From NCBI RefSeq assembly GCF_006345805.1, contig NW_021833238.1, positions 1-64,000 of the forward strand: a stretch of 64,000 nucleotides of DNA, read 5' to 3'. Under the pieces are notes generated by a model. It saw only the letters and a program-made list of their open reading frames with translations. It was not told the origin of the DNA and did no database searches. Positions within the stretch are counted from its first letter, which is position 1. Every line of letters begins with the position of its first letter. This DNA is from Octopus sinensis. Lineage: Eukaryota. Positions 3,378-57,388 of the stretch are shown here, piece after piece. The position numbers were made by a program, and so were the translations under genes.

Positions 3378-3632
3378 GTGGAGGCGCGTGGATTAGTGGT
3401 TAGTGTGTCAGCATCATGATCGTAAGATTGTGGTTTCGATTCCTGGACCGGGCGACACGTTGTGTTCTTGAGCAAAACACTTCATTTCACTTTGCTCCAG
3501 TCCACTCAGCTGGCAAAAATGAGTAACGCTGCGATGGACTGGCGTCCTGTCCAGCTGAGGAACACATACGCCATTGAAACCGGGAAACCGGGCCCATGAG
3601 CCTGGCTAGGCTCTAAAAGGGCGCATTTATTA
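3378..3632 (+). mobile_element. tRNA-derived SINE type B (head B, tail beta)
   Basis: Pol III A box tggattagtgg, B box ggtttcgattcc; near-identical to 26487, 41663 and 60278 copies. Confidence 0.9.
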
Positions 3633-3644
3633 ATTTTTTTTAAA

Positions 3645-4410
3645 TTATTGGTACAAGGTCATAACTCTTGAGGGTGTGTGGGAAAGTCGTTTACATCGAA
3701 CCTAGTGCTTGACTGAACTTAATTTTCTTGATTCTTAAAAGGACGAAAGGCGAAGTCGAGTACCGCGGCATGTAAAATAGAACGTAAAGAATCGATAGAA
3801 ATGCATTTTGTCCGACGTGCTAACGGTTCTGCCACTTCGCCGCCTTTACGTATGTATTAATAATGGTTTCAAATTTTGGCGAAAGATCGGCAATTTCCAA
3901 GAGAAGTTATGCTGTTTATATCAATCCCAGTATTCAACTAGTACTTATTTTATCGATTCCGATCGATGAAAGGGAAAATCGACCTCGGTGGAATTTGAAC
4001 ACGGAATGTAAAGATAGTCGAAAACCCGTAAGCATTTTGCCTGGCACGTTCGTGATTCTGCCAGCTCGCCGCCTTCACGTATTTACTAATAATGATTTTA
4101 AATTTTGGCACAGAGCCAGCAATTCGATGGATCGATCCCAGTACTCAACTGGTACATATTATCTCGACTCCGATAGGATGAAAGGCAAAGCCGACCTCGC
4201 GGGAATTTGAACTCAGAACATGAAGATGGATGACATAAGGCTAAGCATTTCGCCTGTCGTTCTAACGATTCTGCCAATTCGCCACCATACATGTATGTAT
4301 TAAAAATCCTTTTCACTGGAGGCACAAGGCTTCATATTTAGGGGGAGGGGACTACATCGACCCCAGTACTTGACTGGTACTTAATTTATCAACCTCTAAA
4401 GGATTAAAGG
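3645..4410 (-). mobile_element. Head-to-tail cluster of ~4 SINE type C copies
   Basis: Repeated aaggcaaagtcgacctcggcggaatttgaactcagaac-like blocks, three ending in ctgccagctcgccgcc-like heads near 3845, 4075 and 4286. Confidence 0.85.
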
Positions 4411-4994
4411 CACATATATGCACATGCACACTTAGACATATATATATATATATATATACACCCACAAAAAAAATACATATACATATAAATATGTATGCGT
4501 ATATATGCATATATATTTATATATACATACATATATATACGTACATGTGTCTATATGTATTTTACGTACATATACACATACATAAAAAACATACATATAT
4601 AAATATATGTGTGTGTATATGTTGTAAGTTTATGTATGTATAATATATCTGCATATATTTATATATAAATGCATAAACATACGTATATGTATGTATATGT
4701 GTGCGTATATATATATATATATATATATTCATATATCAAAAGGATGTGTTATAATACTATTCCACATGTACAAAAACAGCCATACCAACAACCCAACATA
4801 CTCCATCATCAATGTAAAATGCATATAAATGTAGGTACATACATAATAGACATCCGTGCTCATATATTTATCCACAACATGCATACATTTATACATACAC
4901 ATACTTATGCGCATGCATGCATACATACATGCATATATGCATGCATTGCTGTACGTATCATGCTGACACTGAATGCAGTCATATACATATACAC

Positions 4995-36330: not shown

Positions 36331-36442
36331 CAGGAAAGTATTAGATAGCTGAAAAAACGAATAGCATGGCACCGTATGCTGCAGGTAGTAAGCCCGCTAC
36401 TCGTGCAAGACTCCAGGAGCTCTAACAGAACCTGTGATAAAG
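36331..36442 (+). mobile_element. Very short R4/Dong 3' end in (AAT)n, family 3
   Basis: agg aaa gta tta gat agc tga = RKVLDS*, then ~90-nt UTR; AAT on both sides. Confidence 0.6.
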
Positions 36443-36469
36443 AATAATAATAATAATAATAATAATATA

Positions 36470-36537
<68 letters not shown>

Positions 36538-36568
36538 AATAATAGTAATAATAATAGTCATAATAATA

Positions 36569-36599
<31 letters not shown>

Positions 36600-36604
36600 T
36601 GATG

Positions 36605-36670
<66 letters not shown>

Positions 36671-36673
<3 letters not shown>

Positions 36674-37089
36674 GACCTACTCATTGAAATTAAAGACCTA
36701 CTCATTGAAACTAAAGACCTACTCATTGAAACTAAAGACCTACTCATTGAAATTAAAGACCTACTCATTGAAATTAAAGACCTACTCATTGAAATTAAAG
36801 ACCTACTCATTGAAATTAAAGACCTACTCATTGAAATTAAAAACCTACTCATTGAAATTAAAGACCTACTCATTGAAACTAAAGACCTACTCATTGAAAT
36901 TAAAGACCTACTCATTGAAATTAAAGACCTACTCATTGAAATTAAAGACCTACTCATTGAAATTAAAGACCTACTCATTGAAATTAAAGACCTACTCATT
37001 GAAATTAAAGACCTACTCATTGAAACTAAAGACCTACTCATTGAAATAAAGACCTACTCATTGAAATTAAAGACCTACTCATTGAAATT
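36671..37089 (+). repeat. 21-bp tandem array x20 (aaagacctactcattgaaatt) derived from the Dong ORF
   Basis: Unit reads KDLLIEI; the last unit continues in frame into EKMWHLKEV. Confidence 0.95.
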
Positions 37090-37440
37090 GAGAAAATGTG
37101 GCATCTCAAGGAGGTTACAATACCAGTGATCGTAGGAGCACTAGGACTGATCAAGAAGGGAACCGAAAATTATATGAGAATGATCCCTGGCGTACCATCA
37201 CTGCAAGAAGTGCAAAATATTGTCTTAACTGGTACATCACACGTATTGAGAAGAGCATTGTCGATGTGAGAACTGTTGCTGCTCATGTATTTTAATTTAA
37301 CTTAAAAAAAAAAAAAATGAACGAACTATTGAGTTTGGTTTAATGGCCTACCAATATATACTATGAGTTTCTTTGCCCTAGGAGTCGGGAAGACACTCGG
37401 CAAGAAATGGAAGCAAATTTGAAAGAAGAAAAAAAAAGTA
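37069..37440 (+). mobile_element. 5'-truncated R4/Dong LINE 3' end, family 4
   Basis: KDLLIEIEKMWHLKEVTIPVIVGALGLIKKG...LQEVQNIVLTGTSHVLRRALSM* (stop 37267-37269), UTR, then (AAT)n; a related 67-bp 3' end follows at 37455-37521. Confidence 0.88.
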
Positions 37441-37533
37441 ATAATAATAATAATCTGCCATAGGTGTATGGAAAACACTCGGCGAGAAACGGAAGAAAAT
37501 TTGAAGAAAGAAGGAAAAAACATAATAATAATG

Positions 37534-37610
<77 letters not shown>

Positions 37611-38149
37611 AAGAAAAGAAGAAGATGATGAAGAAGAAGAAGAAGAAGAAGAAAAGGAAAAAGAAGAAGAAGAAGAAGAAGAAGAAGAAGAAGAAGAAGA
37701 AGAAGAAACAAAAGAAATGAAGGAAGGGAGGTATATTTGATGAACGATTATAGATTAAAGAATAGAGTTCGTTGCCAAGTATACGCTTTCTTTTCATTTA
37801 ACAATCACTGGAAACTTTCCTGTCATCTCAGTTCGTTATTTTTGGCTTGTTCGTTATTTTCTATTTTATTGCCTTATTAGCTTCTGTAAGGTAATAAGAC
37901 GACTTGGGAATGTAATACCAGGAAGGTTTTGAGTAAATACTACAAAGCGTAGTTGTGGTATACCTTACTGATTCTTAAAATTTATTTAGCAAATCAATAT
38001 CGCTCTTACGTTCGATTTTGAATTTGTTTGGCAAGAATATTGATCTGGAAGTGTGTTGTAACCAATATAGTTATATATGGAATAAGTAAAGAGAAAAGGC
38101 TTAAATAAATGGCTAAGTATAATAATAATATAATATAATAATAATAATA

Positions 38150-38187
<38 letters not shown>

Positions 38188-38257
38188 AATAATACCAACA
38201 ATAATAATAATAATAATAATAATATAATAATAATAATAATAATAAAATAATAATAAT

Positions 38258-39159
38258 AAAGACCTACTCATTGAAATTAAAGACCTACTCATTGAACTAA
38301 AGACCTACTCATTGAAACTAAAGACCTACTCATTGAAATAAGACCTACTCATTGAATTAAAGACCTACTCATTGAAATTAAAGACCTACTCATTGAAATT
38401 AAAGACCTACTCATTGAAATTAAAAACCTACTCATTGAAATTAAAGACCTACTCATTGAAACTAAAGACCTACTCATTGAAATTAAAGACCTACTCATTG
38501 AAATTAAAGACCTACTCATTGAAATTAAAGACCTACTCATTGAAATTAAAGACCTACTCATTGAAATTAAGACCTACTCATTGAAATTAAAGACCTACTC
38601 ATTGAATTAAAGACCTACTCATTGAAATAAAGACCTACTCATTGAAATTAAAGACCTACTCATTGAAATTGAGAAAATGTGGCATCTCAAGGAGGTTACA
38701 ATACCAGTGATCGTAGGAGCACTAGGACTGATCAAGAAGGACCGAAAATTATATGAGAATGATCCCTGGCTTACCATCCCTGCAAGAAGTGCAACAAATT
38801 GTCTTAACTGGTACATCACACGTATTGAGAAGAGCATTGTCGATGTGAGAACTGTTGCTGCTGCTCATGTATTTTAATTTAACTTAAAAAAAAAAAAAAT
38901 GAACGAACTATTGAGTTTGGTTTAATGGCCTACCAATGTATACTATGAGTTTCTTTGCCCTAGGAGTCGGGAAGACACTCGGCAAGAAATGGAAGCAAAT
39001 TTGAAAGAAGAAAAAAAAAGTAATAATAATAATAATCTGCCATAGGTGTATGGAAAACACTCGGCGAGAAACGGAAGAAAATTTGAAGAAAGAAGGAAAA
39101 AACATAATAATAATGATAATAATAATAATAATAATAATATATAATAATAATAATAATAA

Positions 39160-39190
<31 letters not shown>

Positions 39191-39742
39191 AAAAGAAGAA
39201 GATGATGAAGAAGAAGAAAGAAGAAGAAGAAGAAGAGAAGAAGAAGAAAAGAAAAAAGAAGAAGAAGAAGAAAAAGAAGAAGAAGAAGAAAAGAAGAAGA
39301 AGAAAAGAAGAAGAAGAAGAAGAAGAAGAAGAAACAAAGAAATGAAGGAAGGGAGGTATATTTGATGAACGATTATAGATTAAAGAATAGAGTTCGTTGC
39401 CAAGTATACGCTTTCTTTTCATTTAACAATCACTGGAAACTTTCCTGTCATCTCAGTTCGTTATTTTTGGCTTGTTCGTTATTTTCTATTTTATTGCCTT
39501 ATTAGCTTCTGTAAGGTAATAAGACGACTTGGGAATGTAATACCAGGAAGGTTTTGAGTAAATACTACAAAGCGTAGTTGTGGTATACCTTACTGATTCT
39601 TAAAATTTATTTAGCAAATCAATATCGCTCTTACGTTCGATTTTGAATTTGTTTGGCAAGAATATTGATCTGGAAGTGTGTTGTAACCAATATAGTTATA
39701 TATGGAATAAGTAAAGAGAAAAGGCTTAAATAAATGGCTAAG

Positions 39743-39778
<36 letters not shown>

Positions 39779-39827
39779 TAATAATAATAATGATGATGAT
39801 GATGATGATGATGATAATAATACCAAC

Positions 39828-39871
<44 letters not shown>

Positions 39872-39887
39872 TAATGATAATAATAAT
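38258..39887 (+). repeat. Tandem duplicate of 36671-38257 (~1.6 kb)
   Basis: Same 20-unit array with the same variant order, Dong end, (AAT)(AAG) tract and unique DNA; differs mostly by 1-bp indels. Confidence 0.92.
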
Positions 39888-39889
39888 GG

Positions 39890-40152
39890 CTTCTTTTATT
39901 TGCCACCAGGGCGAACGATGAGTGTGGACAATACAAAGACATACTTAGGGTGCATCAAAAGCCACGGCTTGCCTAAGCTGCCACTCAGAGGGAGCTGACA
40001 GCAGATTGACCGCCTCGCCATTGGAACGCGTCCCTTCCACAAGAACATGAACAAGAGACGTTCCAATTGATCAAGCAATAACTGGGGTAAAGCACGACGG
40101 TTAGACAATAAATGATAACGGAGGCGATGTAGGCTTTCACCACCTCTGCCCG
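39890..40152 (-). mobile_element. Internally deleted Tx1/L1 fragment
   Basis: LERLLFMFLWKGRVPMARRSICCQLPLSGSLGKPWL, homologous to 14476-14590, joined directly to a 3' tail gccctggtggcaaataaaagaa. Confidence 0.8.
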
Positions 40153-50190: not shown

Positions 50191-50761
50191 TTGGGTTGTC
50201 CGGAAAGTTCGTGCCAATTTATAGTAGCTTACCGTTCGACTTATTTTAGAACGTAGTTGAGTCCATAAAATAGGATTTGACTACACCTCCATTTAGAGCA
50301 CAGAATAAGCTATCTTTTCGTGGAAGAAGGTTTATGAACATTGTTCATTAACCTGTGTTAATTCTGTAACCCCTTAAAATGGAAGAGAAGAAAGTTCATT
50401 TTCGGCACTTGATGCTTTGGGAACCAGACAAAATTGCTGCAGCTCGGCTGGGGTGTGTTACCCCACCCTCCATATTCACCAGATATTGCTCCTTCGGACT
50501 TCCACTTATTCAAGTCTCTGCAGAATAGTCTTAATGGTAAAAATTTCAATTCCTTGGATGATGTAAAAAGATACCTTGATGAATTCTTTGCCATGAAACC
50601 ACCTCAATTCCGGGAAGAGGGTATTTTCAAGTTAAAGGAAAGATGGAGACGCATTGTGCAACAAAATGGTTCACATTTGGTTGATTAAAAGTGTAAAGGC
50701 AAGTATTTATTGACCTTTTTCTTTCCTTTAAAAATCGGCACGAACTTTCTGGACAACCCAA
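50191..50761 (+). mobile_element. Internally deleted mariner retaining the C-terminal transposase
   Basis: TA TSD, TIR ttgggttgtccggaaagttcgtgcc; ORF 50434-50688 LPHPPYSPDIAPSDFHLFKSLQN. Confidence 0.93.
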
Positions 50762-54317: not shown

Positions 54318-54661
54318 GCGAGATATATATATATATCTTATAATATATATATATATTTATGTGAAATAGAAATGAATATCTTGTAGTAGATTAATCAAAA
54401 GTTAACCGATACCTTAGTAGCAAAATCACAGCAGTGAACAGCACGGTTGGAGGTACAACCATCTGGCGTTGCAACCGTGCGTTGGTGCGGATAATTGAAA
54501 TTAAAACATTATTGGTGAATTGAAGAAATGGAGCTGAACGCAGATTGAACAGAAATCGTTTTATTTCATTCTACACGTGTTTCGAAAGGCACAAATTACC
54601 ACAATATATATATATATATATAATATTATATTATATATTATATATATATATAATATATGGA

Positions 54662-54883
54662 CAGGGTGTTCAAAAAGTCTCCCGGCAGTGATTCTTTCAT
54701 CCTGCGCATCACCATGGCGCTACTTCAAGAGTTTTTCGGTGAACGAATTATTTCGAAGGGAGCTTGGACACCAAAATCACCTGATTTAACACTTCCAGAC
54801 ACTTTTTTTTCTAGGGAGCAAGTAAGGATTAGTGTACAGAATCGCCCGAATACCTACTGCAGAGAAATTTCTTAAACCCCCTG
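54662..54883 (+). mobile_element. Small Tc1/mariner-superfamily deletion derivative
   Basis: TIR cagggtgttcaaaaagtctc vs cagggggtttaagaaatttc (15/20); encodes [26 protein letters not shown] (WPxxSPDL motif). Confidence 0.75.
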
Positions 54884-54935
54884 TATATATATATATACAT
54901 ATATATATGTATATATATAATATATATATATATAT

Positions 54936-55015
<80 letters not shown>

Positions 55016-55044
55016 TATATATATTATATATATATATATATATA

Positions 55045-55075
<31 letters not shown>

Positions 55076-55218
55076 ATTATATGATATTTATATATATACA
55101 TACATATATAATATATATATTATATAAATATACATACATATAATATAATATATATATTATATTAAATTATATATACATAGATATATATATATATATATAT
55201 TTATAAATATATATATAC

Positions 55219-55262
<44 letters not shown>

Positions 55263-55284
55263 TAAATATATATATACATATATA

Positions 55285-56525
55285 TACTTGATACTTTGAT
55301 AGGTTTCGGCCATTATTGGCCCAGGCCATGTCTAACTTAATAGCACCACCTGGTGAAGTCTTTCAAGTCAGAATTTGGGCACTATGGCCCACTCAAGTAG
55401 AGAGTTATTGTTTACAGAGACATATCCGGGTGTAGGGGGTTTATCCGGGATTTCTTGAAGGAATCTGTCCAAAGACTTCTTGAACCCTATAGGGTCAGTT
55501 TCTGTTTTAATGTTGTTGGTGTAATGTTAAAGAGAGCGGGGCCAATTGAGGTGAAATAATTGTGCCGTATTGTTTTTTATGAGATGAGAGTGCGATTTTT
55601 GTTTGTGGCGGATGGCACGGGGCCCAAGCCTTGGATGTACTTAAAGGTGATGCCAACATCATTTGGGCAATGCTGATGGAATATTTTCCACATCATGCAG
55701 ATGATGTAGCGCTCACGACGACGTTGGAGAGAATAGAGTTTTAGCTTTTCTAGTCGACCCCAATAGTCGAGGCCTGTCATGCCATCTATCTTTTTTGTGA
55801 TTGGCCCTTGAGGTGCTTCAACTTTTATGATACCTTGTATTGTGTGGGGAGACCACAGTGGACAACAGTATTCAAGGTGGGGTCGGGCAAAAGTGGAGAA
55901 GAGAAGGATAATGGTGTGGATATCTCTCGACTGGAAAGTTCTGGAATCCAGGAACACATTCTGCGGGCCATGTCAACTTTGGTGTTTATATGAGTGGCCC
56001 AGCTTACGTTGTTGTCCACAATTACTCCCAAGTCTCTGATGTTGTTGGACGCCGCGAGAGTTTCACCTGAAGGAAGGGAGTATGGGAGTTTCAGGGCATC
56101 CTCTTTTCCAAAGTGGATTAGCTCAAATTTATCCTCGTTCAGCAGCATATTGTTTTTTTCTGCCCATTGGATAACAGCCAGTAGATCTGACTGAAGGCAT
56201 GTCCGGTCACTCGCCTCATTTATGACCTTCTGTAGCTTGGAGTCATCTGCAAAGATTTTTATGTTGCTGTGCTTGATGATGTCATTAATGTCATTAATGT
56301 AAATGATGAAAAGAAGTGGGCCCAGCACAGTTCCTTGCGGAACGCCACTACTGACTTTGGCTGGGCTTGATTTTACCCCTTCAACTACAACATGTTGAGA
56401 TCTGTCTGTCAGGAAACACTTAATCCATTTCAGTAACTTTCCAGAGACACCAAATCTGTCTGTCAGGAAACACTTAATCCATTTCAGTAACTTTCCAGAG
56501 ACACCAATCTGTCTGTCAGGAAACA
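55285..56525 (-). mobile_element. 5'-truncated CR1-group LINE (RT C-terminal half) in (TA)n
   Basis: SGVPQGTVLGPLLF, FADDSK, RDLGVIVD, RPHLEYCCPLWSP, LYSLQRRR; 3' tail tatcaaagtatcaagta. Confidence 0.93.
56400..56525 (-). repeat. 54-bp unit x2.35 at the CR1 5' truncation point
   Basis: Units 56400-56453, 56454-56506 and partial 56507-56525. Confidence 0.92.
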
Positions 56526-56633
56526 TATATATAATATATATATATTATATTAAATATATATATACATATATATATATATATATTATATTAAATATATATA
56601 GCAATATATGTATATATATATATATATATATAC

Positions 56634-56667
<34 letters not shown>

Positions 56668-56701
56668 ATATATATCTATAGTATATGTATATATATATAT
56701 A

Positions 56702-56746
<45 letters not shown>

Positions 56747-57388
56747 TGCATATATATATATATCTATATAATCTATATATTCTATATATATTATATTATA
56801 TATATCTCACTTCGTTGATTTTTCTGTGCTCTCTTATTCCCATTAGTGGAGTTTTTTTTTTTTTAATATGGTCATCTGCCAAAAAAGTAGCAAATATTGC
56901 CATACTTTATTAAAATTTACGTGAGAAAAATTAGAATACCTTACAAGACTGGAATGTCAGTATTGTTGCTGTTGTTGTTCCAACTGACCTTATCTGTGAT
57001 CCCAATATTACTCATGCTATTGTTTCTGCTATTTACTCATTATTTCCTTTTTTTTTAAACCTAAACTGTTATCGATACTAATATTATTACCGTTGTTGTT
57101 ACTCTTACTTTTTAATTTTTATGGTGTTGTTTTGGTTTATCTTCTTTTGTTTTAACTGCTGCTACTGCTGCTGCTGCTGCTGCTGCTGTTATAGCTATTT
57201 TGGCTGCAAGTATTCCTTTAAGAATTGCTGTTTCTCGATATTAGTACTGACACTGCTGCTGCTGTTGTTGTTGTTGCCCTCTTTTTTTGGTTTTTTGTTT
57301 AAATTTCTATTAATATTACTGATGGAAATATGTAGCTTCTCAATTACCAACATCGCTACGGCTGCTACTAGTCTTCTCCTCCCCTTTT

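Follow-up and report, generated by a model that had tools for sequence, protein, structure and literature searches.

We identified a tandem array at the 5′ junction of a truncated LINE in the window (the whole 64,000-nucleotide stretch of Octopus sinensis DNA analysed here), and found comparable reiterations at 5′ junctions in two unrelated LINE families. Duplications at a family-wide truncation hot spot formed during insertion, and our leading explanation, for and against which we are evenly divided, is that the repeat arose as a stutter at the time of insertion, with the reverse transcriptase (RT) of the element re-copying the last short piece of its RNA through run-off and template jumping.

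Tandem array at the LINE 5′ junction

The 2.4-unit repeat at 56400–56525 is real, being called by TRF at period 54 with 98% match and a score of 243. Read on the minus strand, (TA)n is followed by a partial unit of 19 nt, then by a full 53-nt unit and the native 54-nt unit, just as the original prediction had described; beyond these lie 1.1 kb of LINE, 8-nt repeats and (TA)n. All three copies of the 54-nt unit end at the same terminal base, and the outermost partial begins 34–35 nt 3′ of where the inner copies begin. The features are as follows.

54884–55286, unstranded: (TA)n microsatellite, the 3′ flank and likely target (3′ flanks are TA-rich in 96/111 family copies)
55286–55301, minus strand: tail of about 2 short 8-nt repeat units at the 3′ end
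55290–56453, minus strand: 5′-truncated LINE body of 1,164 nt, positions ~3470–4631 of a 4.63-kb element of a young APE-RT family
56400–56453, minus strand: native 54-nt unit, with which the continuous body begins on its 5′ side; blunt joint to the middle unit
56454–56506, minus strand: middle 53-nt re-copy, with the same end base as the native unit and 2-nt (AT) microhomology with the outer partial
56507–56525, minus strand: outermost partial, the last 19 nt of the unit, abutting (TA)n
56526–56805, unstranded: (TA)n microsatellite (TRF), the 5′ flank of the LINE insertion

Joints were scored against the native sequence of intact copies. The window copy has 40 other matches at 97–99% identity in the 2.72-Gb assembly and is 99% identical to a full-length natural copy (L140); 28 of the 29 other near-identical copies carry native sequence at the array site, and the remaining one (L025) is truncated 21 nt further on. 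The joint pattern of the array has two matches in 2.72 Gb, both inside the window, which rules out inheritance of the array from a source element.

An artefact of assembly or sequencing at this locus, or inheritance of the repeat from the source element, is very improbable as the origin of the array. The window lies on an unplaced contig of small size that contains single-base errors, a noisy tandem duplication of ~1.6 kb is close by, and the joint is unbridged by reads (no contig spans it in three public runs, X15, X1 and X4, a result that we did not count against the array); however, the joint is unique in the genome and hence not inherited, and this architecture recurs at more than 45 loci, most of them on contigs of chromosome scale. 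Furthermore, a joint of this go-back kind at the truncation hot spot described below is present in a contig of the independent run X4, which gives modest assembly-independent support to the class of reiterations, not to the window locus. The assembly held no empty allele, the insertion flank being single-copy. The difference between the 53-nt and 54-nt units could be a consensus error, since the window copy is without single bases that many family contigs carry.

The two back-jumps of ~54 nt that had been proposed are not demonstrably independent, since one slip between two 19-nt direct repeats lying 53 nt apart takes 1.36 units to exactly 2.36. This leaves room for a history in which a single event at insertion left 1.36 units or duplicated sequence across the joint, after which replication slippage amplified the array; the single-base difference between the window joints may itself be an assembly error. 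We regard this history as improbable. The first non-native joint cannot come from slippage, given that the inner copy extends 34–35 nt further 5′ than the final junction, and no duplication lies within an extended copy; variants in longer arrays, discussed below, also count against it.

The array also doubles a 17-residue peptide, which occurs twice in the stop-to-stop frame 55825–56544, as originally noted for ORF 55825–56526. That frame matches RVT_1 (E 8e-12) and is a 5′-truncated RT fragment, no gene, and the peptide duplication is without coding meaning; the product as a whole has no function and is a molecular fossil seeding a minisatellite.

A young APE-type LINE family

Full-length copies of the family measure 4.63 kb and carry ORF1 and an endonuclease-RT ORF2; in one of them (L139), a 1,043-aa frame matches Exo_endo_phos_2 (6e-14) and RVT_1 (2e-30), with a 467-aa frame upstream. 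Copies are 3′-anchored with variable 5′ truncation, their junctions falling anywhere from position 1 to ~4600. By both its ORFs and its truncation pattern, the family is an APE-type LINE (a non-LTR retrotransposon). It is young (97–99% identity among copies), and the assembly holds 1,472 exact matches to its 3′ end, at which an 8-nt unit in 1–4 copies precedes (TA)n. Flanks are TA-rich on the 5′ side in 82 of 111 copies, as on the 3′ side in 96; (TA)n targets are strongly preferred by this family, and the second family described below was found in (AAT)n.

Elements of the CR1 clade end in a short tandem-repeat 3′ tail in place of poly(A), and their ORF1 is of the PHD, esterase or RRM type. The ORF1 of this family gave sub-threshold matches only, to Myb/SANT (1e-4) and CCCH (0.14). 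We tentatively place the family in the CR1 group by its motifs; together with the repeat tail, these make the label plausible.

At least three sister subfamilies carry the hot-spot motif with different 3′ tail repeats, and reiteration was seen in all three. Internal deletions of ~20–520 nt occur in seven copies (L069, L071, L081, L087, L091, L110 and L134), and near the 3′ end of L043, 16 nt are duplicated. Two very short neighbouring copies in opposite orientations (L045 and L046, contig C1, ~30.4985–30.4992 Mb) were also observed, one of which carries, at its 5′ junction, 22 nt of its 3′ end in inverted form, resembling twin priming. In public run X21, 0 of 12.9 million reads fell on the family despite a species label shared with a family-bearing run; the label or the organism may differ.

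Reiteration recurs at other 5′ junctions

We surveyed the first 100 of the 1,472 3′-end matches (all on contig C1), the 39 best other matches, and copies found in the same stretches. These 156 3′-anchored matches gave 120 distinct copies with enough flank and 111 after filtering, which took out the index copy, duplicates, copies lying at N gaps and a single 85% copy; nine more were read separately. Reiteration was present at 8 of 120 other family junctions (6.7%, 95% interval 3–13%), each a direct re-copy of the first bases of the element (L025, L030, L070, L073, L084, L086, L109 and L139). This set derives from 11 forward matches of at least 8 nt, from which L062, L067, L078 and L122 were dropped as flank or chance matches, and to which L073 (7 nt × 4) was added by eye; the null rate for matches of at least 10 nt, from shuffled partners, was 0.06%. 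L030 has 8 units of 33 nt, and L070 shows the opposite polarity.

Natural full-length 5′ ends are reiterated too, 8 of 10 pattern matches there being family copies. At one full-length 5′ junction (L210, C9:33178648–33178695), the sequence runs from a direct copy through an inverted copy to (TA)n, a path with three switches.

An R2-type family with the same architecture

A second clade within 20 kb, likewise inserted in a microsatellite, had been claimed to show such a junction, and the window bears this out with 20 units of 21 nt at 36670–37089 in (AAT)n.

36670–37089, plus strand: 20 × 21-nt reiteration (TRF) at the 5′ truncation of an R2-type element in (AAT)n
38257–38670, plus strand: twin 20-unit array inside a ~1.6-kb tandem duplication

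In the first of these arrays, the joint base is T or C. Since the twin lies inside the tandem duplication, we count both arrays as one event. The duplicated copies (window ~36440–39890) differ mostly by single-base indels and may be an assembly artefact.

The best PDB matches of the element at 37069–37440 are R2 proteins (1e-13), with its endonuclease stretch aligned weakly, and the family carries RVT_1 and zf-RVT domains. Its RT precedes a zinc motif and a restriction-like endonuclease of the PD..D/K kind, which makes it an R2/R4/Dong-type RLE element; an RTE identity was ruled out by the R2 protein matches. The (AAT)n setting resembles the TAA target of Dong (PMC3774820). Reiteration was found at 3 of 19 other 5′ junctions of this family (L177, L192 with ~82 nt, and L202). 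The process is thus general in the sense originally proposed, occurring in two unrelated LINE families (8/120 and 3/19) and at dozens of loci.

Duplications at a truncation hot spot form during insertion

Truncation in the APE-type family is concentrated at a hot spot ~60 nt from the 3′ end, where 34 of 93 junctions in the C1-based sample fall and copies are only ~50–62 nt long.

Element positions ~4569–4582 (window ~55340–55355), family-wide: truncation hot spot

Folding of the family 3′-end RNA did not clearly account for the hot spot; protection of the 3′ RNA end by a protein is one option. Many of its junctions share one short snap-back inversion (L037, L041, L061, L092, L126 and L129).

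A genome search for the hot-spot duplication pattern, which requires exact matches and units of 11–41 nt, gave 36 matches at 35 loci. All 35 duplications end at the 5′ junction, whereas at least 1,829 of 5,236 motif-bearing copies extend past it (p about 3e-7), and this confinement indicates that the duplications formed during insertion. Ordinary post-insertion duplication is ruled out as their origin, with no duplication in any extended copy. Among the other ~3,400 copies with the hot-spot motif, the duplicated share is about 1%, which is a lower bound.

The outer copy starts later than the inner at 23 of the 35 loci, at the same base at 8, and earlier, by 1–2 nt, at 4 (sign test p = 3e-4); these counts follow hand correction of four parses broken by point variants, the raw parse giving 24/6/5. 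What looked like an extra G at L143, L155 and L156 is native in a sister subfamily, and it was recoded. Starts are more tightly spread for inner copies (SD 1.7 nt) than for outer copies (SD 3.1) or single junctions (SD 3.7); compared with the single-junction distribution, inner starts match (p = 0.71) and outer starts lie later (p = 0.04). Since the outer copy tends to be the shorter one, sequence 5′ of the final junction must still have been present in the template, and a later duplication is thereby excluded.

The claimed polarity, with the outermost copy partial, is therefore a genuine bias. The claim that polarity marks RT re-copying fares less evenly: re-copying remains the leading mechanism, but polarity alone cannot separate re-copying of RNA from re-priming on cDNA, because a second-strand zig-zag from the target 3′ end gives the same sequence. 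The direction of synthesis is not readable from sequence, and all the statistics given here for RT re-copying are also compatible with repeated priming from the target end.

Joint chemistry

Across 49 unit-to-unit joints, 15 were blunt, 6 had a 1-nt overlap and 6 a 2-nt overlap; 15 had one extra base, 3 had two, and 4 carried longer flank-like inserts. Overlaps of 0, 1 and 2 nt (15/6/6) agree with chance (15.2/7.6/4.2; p = 0.58), revealing no microhomology excess, and 33 of 49 joints are blunt or have 1–2 extra bases, the homology-free form with 0–2 untemplated bases that template jumping leaves. As a test of direction, we scored the extra bases, 10 of 15 of which are pyrimidines (p = 0.30), with no significant bias. 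All base calls derive from an assembly with single-base errors.

In the regular arrays, both unit ends are fixed and the joint base varies; L152, with 7 units of 19 nt, has the joint bases A, A, C, T, A, C. Variants in six arrays (picked for regularity, the counts entered by hand) number 10 at joints versus 2 in ~920 internal positions, and this concentration argues against slippage as the amplifier of longer arrays. Two loci favour slippage: the joints of L216 are identical throughout, and L084 has a private extra base common to both of its units. Rolling-circle copying of a ligated RNA circle is disfavoured, since joints differ within arrays.

Other junctions are less regular. Flank DNA lies between the copies at L025, L073, L109, L154, L206, L207 and L209; the spacer of L148 matches unique upstream flank; the inverted (snap-back) segment of L092 is itself reiterated; and L160 keeps its end point without progressive shortening. 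The duplicated unit of L203 is composite; because its composite start recurs at two other loci, we do not take the unit as proof of a DNA template.

Re-copying by RT and re-priming at the DNA level

Joint chemistry is better evidence for RT re-copying than polarity is, the joints being homology-free, with single extra bases that vary within arrays. A short fixed template with hard limits at both ends, and a single untemplated base in each cycle, favour RT run-off with end-to-end jumping. Under this mechanism, the RT would run off the 5′ end of a broken RNA and add one non-templated base, while host RNase H would cut the RNA behind it, leaving a terminal fragment with a free 3′ end. This fragment would measure 7–80 nt, mostly ~20 nt (53–54 nt at 56400–56525); the RT would jump to its 3′ end and copy it again, from once up to about 20 times, and the last cycle would be cut short or trimmed before being joined to the (TA)n target. 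We infer the severed fragment rather than observe it. A role for RNase H2 in first-strand synthesis is part of the model for L1 (PMC10830420).

Several observations tell against RT re-copying. L148 is more simply explained by a one-step DNA duplication across the joint, the reiterated snap-back in L092 needs a DNA template, and flank DNA between copies fits a DNA-level step. The pattern of inner and outer starts is explained no less well by first priming events that abort during second-strand synthesis. The lack of significant bias in the extra base, the identical joints of L216, the opposite polarity of L070 and the unshortened ends of L160 also count against it.

A strong rival is that the copies arose by second-strand re-priming at the DNA level, carried out by polymerase theta or by the LINE RT acting on DNA; we consider this possible, if on the doubtful side. 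Polymerase theta-mediated end joining leaves scars enriched in microhomology at their joints, and the present joints show no such enrichment. Re-priming also offers no reason for 6–19 stops at one internal base (L152, L030 and the window array at 36670). In its favour are the interleaved flank repeats and snap-backs at the same junctions, the outer starts lying later than single junctions, and a pattern shared by two unrelated LINE clades, which suggests a host enzyme. Polymerase theta is known to switch among non-templated, cis-templated and trans-templated extension (PMC4912351), and is required for extra nucleotides at the 5′ joints of Drosophila retroelement cDNA (PMC3280974); however, units of 33–82 nt are well above the 7-nt median reported for its inserts (PMC4912351). 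Both RT re-copying and second-strand re-priming may operate.

If RT re-copying applies throughout, LINE RTs of two distant clades would perform telomerase-like processive repeat addition in vivo, using a severed 5′ RNA fragment, with up to 20 recopies, one untemplated base per cycle, and de novo minisatellites at ~1/15 insertions. We put this forward tentatively, leaning slightly towards doubt.

Relation to known systems

In the literature searched, we found no account of regular arrays with several units at LINE truncation points, and prior description is possible. Ichiyanagi 2007 and Kajikawa 2012 are said to analyse LINE 5′ extra nucleotides in detail, and may cover such re-copies.

Extra nucleotides at LINE 5′ junctions and template jumps are themselves established (PMC2666801, PMC4245944, PMC11331408). 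Extra sequence at the 5′ junctions of truncated ZfL2-2 and L1 elements has been reported (PMC2666801, PMC4245944), much of it being ascribed to template jumps on the basis of unpublished data (PMC2666801); the portions of these two papers drawn on here contain neither direct re-copies of the element's terminal segment nor multi-unit arrays. A precedent is R2, whose junction inserts include 3 tandem copies of ~20 nt from the 5′-terminal segment of the RNA (PMC3774820, Fig. 5 legend). There, the repeated segment is also 28S target sequence, and the accompanying passages explain simple duplications only (PMC3774820), whereas in the octopus arrays the segment belongs to the element only, lies at internal truncation points and reaches up to 20 units.

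Non-templated addition followed by template jumping into concatemers has been described for L1 ORF2p (PMC10830420) and R2 (PMC11371274, PMC2718515). The RTs of L1, R2 and group II introns share with the present arrays run-off, the extra base and a homology-free jump, and their 'snap-back', 'extra template' and tandem 5′ junction classes also have parallels here (PMC10830420, PMC11371274, PMC2718515, PMC3280974). In the sections concerned, those jumps took place in vitro or to another RNA molecule, and the RT junction classes given there contain no genome-fixed repeated jumps on a short fragment of the same template. End joining by polymerase theta likewise yields iterated break-proximal copies, direct and inverted, mixed with untemplated bases, but regular arrays with two fixed ends are absent from the part of that report used here, which gives a 7-nt median insert (PMC4912351).

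Telomerase and the bacterial DRT2 system resemble the arrays in that an RT jumps back at the template end and produces tandem cDNA repeats; both employ a dedicated structured RNA with an alignment sequence, exact joints and a function (PMC12039810). The octopus arrays, in contrast, have accidental template ends and imprecise joints, and since one insertion differs from another in its unit ends and joints are variable inside arrays, the parallel is at most an analogy, not membership.

These junctions bear on how LINE 5′ ends are finished and why they are so frequently truncated, and they preserve, untrimmed, the points where synthesis ended and restarted; the hot spot, moreover, permits base-by-base comparison of events at one site, alongside dozens of loci. 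If the RT is responsible, processivity in repeat addition would lie latent in ordinary retrotransposon RTs and would give rise to minisatellites directly, with a bearing on the origins of telomerase and on the quality of the junctions that R2-based gene insertion produces. Were polymerase theta responsible instead, the arrays would form a large natural collection of regular theta scars.

Elsewhere in the window, a fragment at 50413–50688, for which Pfam gave no match, and a second at 54654–54875 carry motifs by which we take them to be Tc1/mariner transposase-like.
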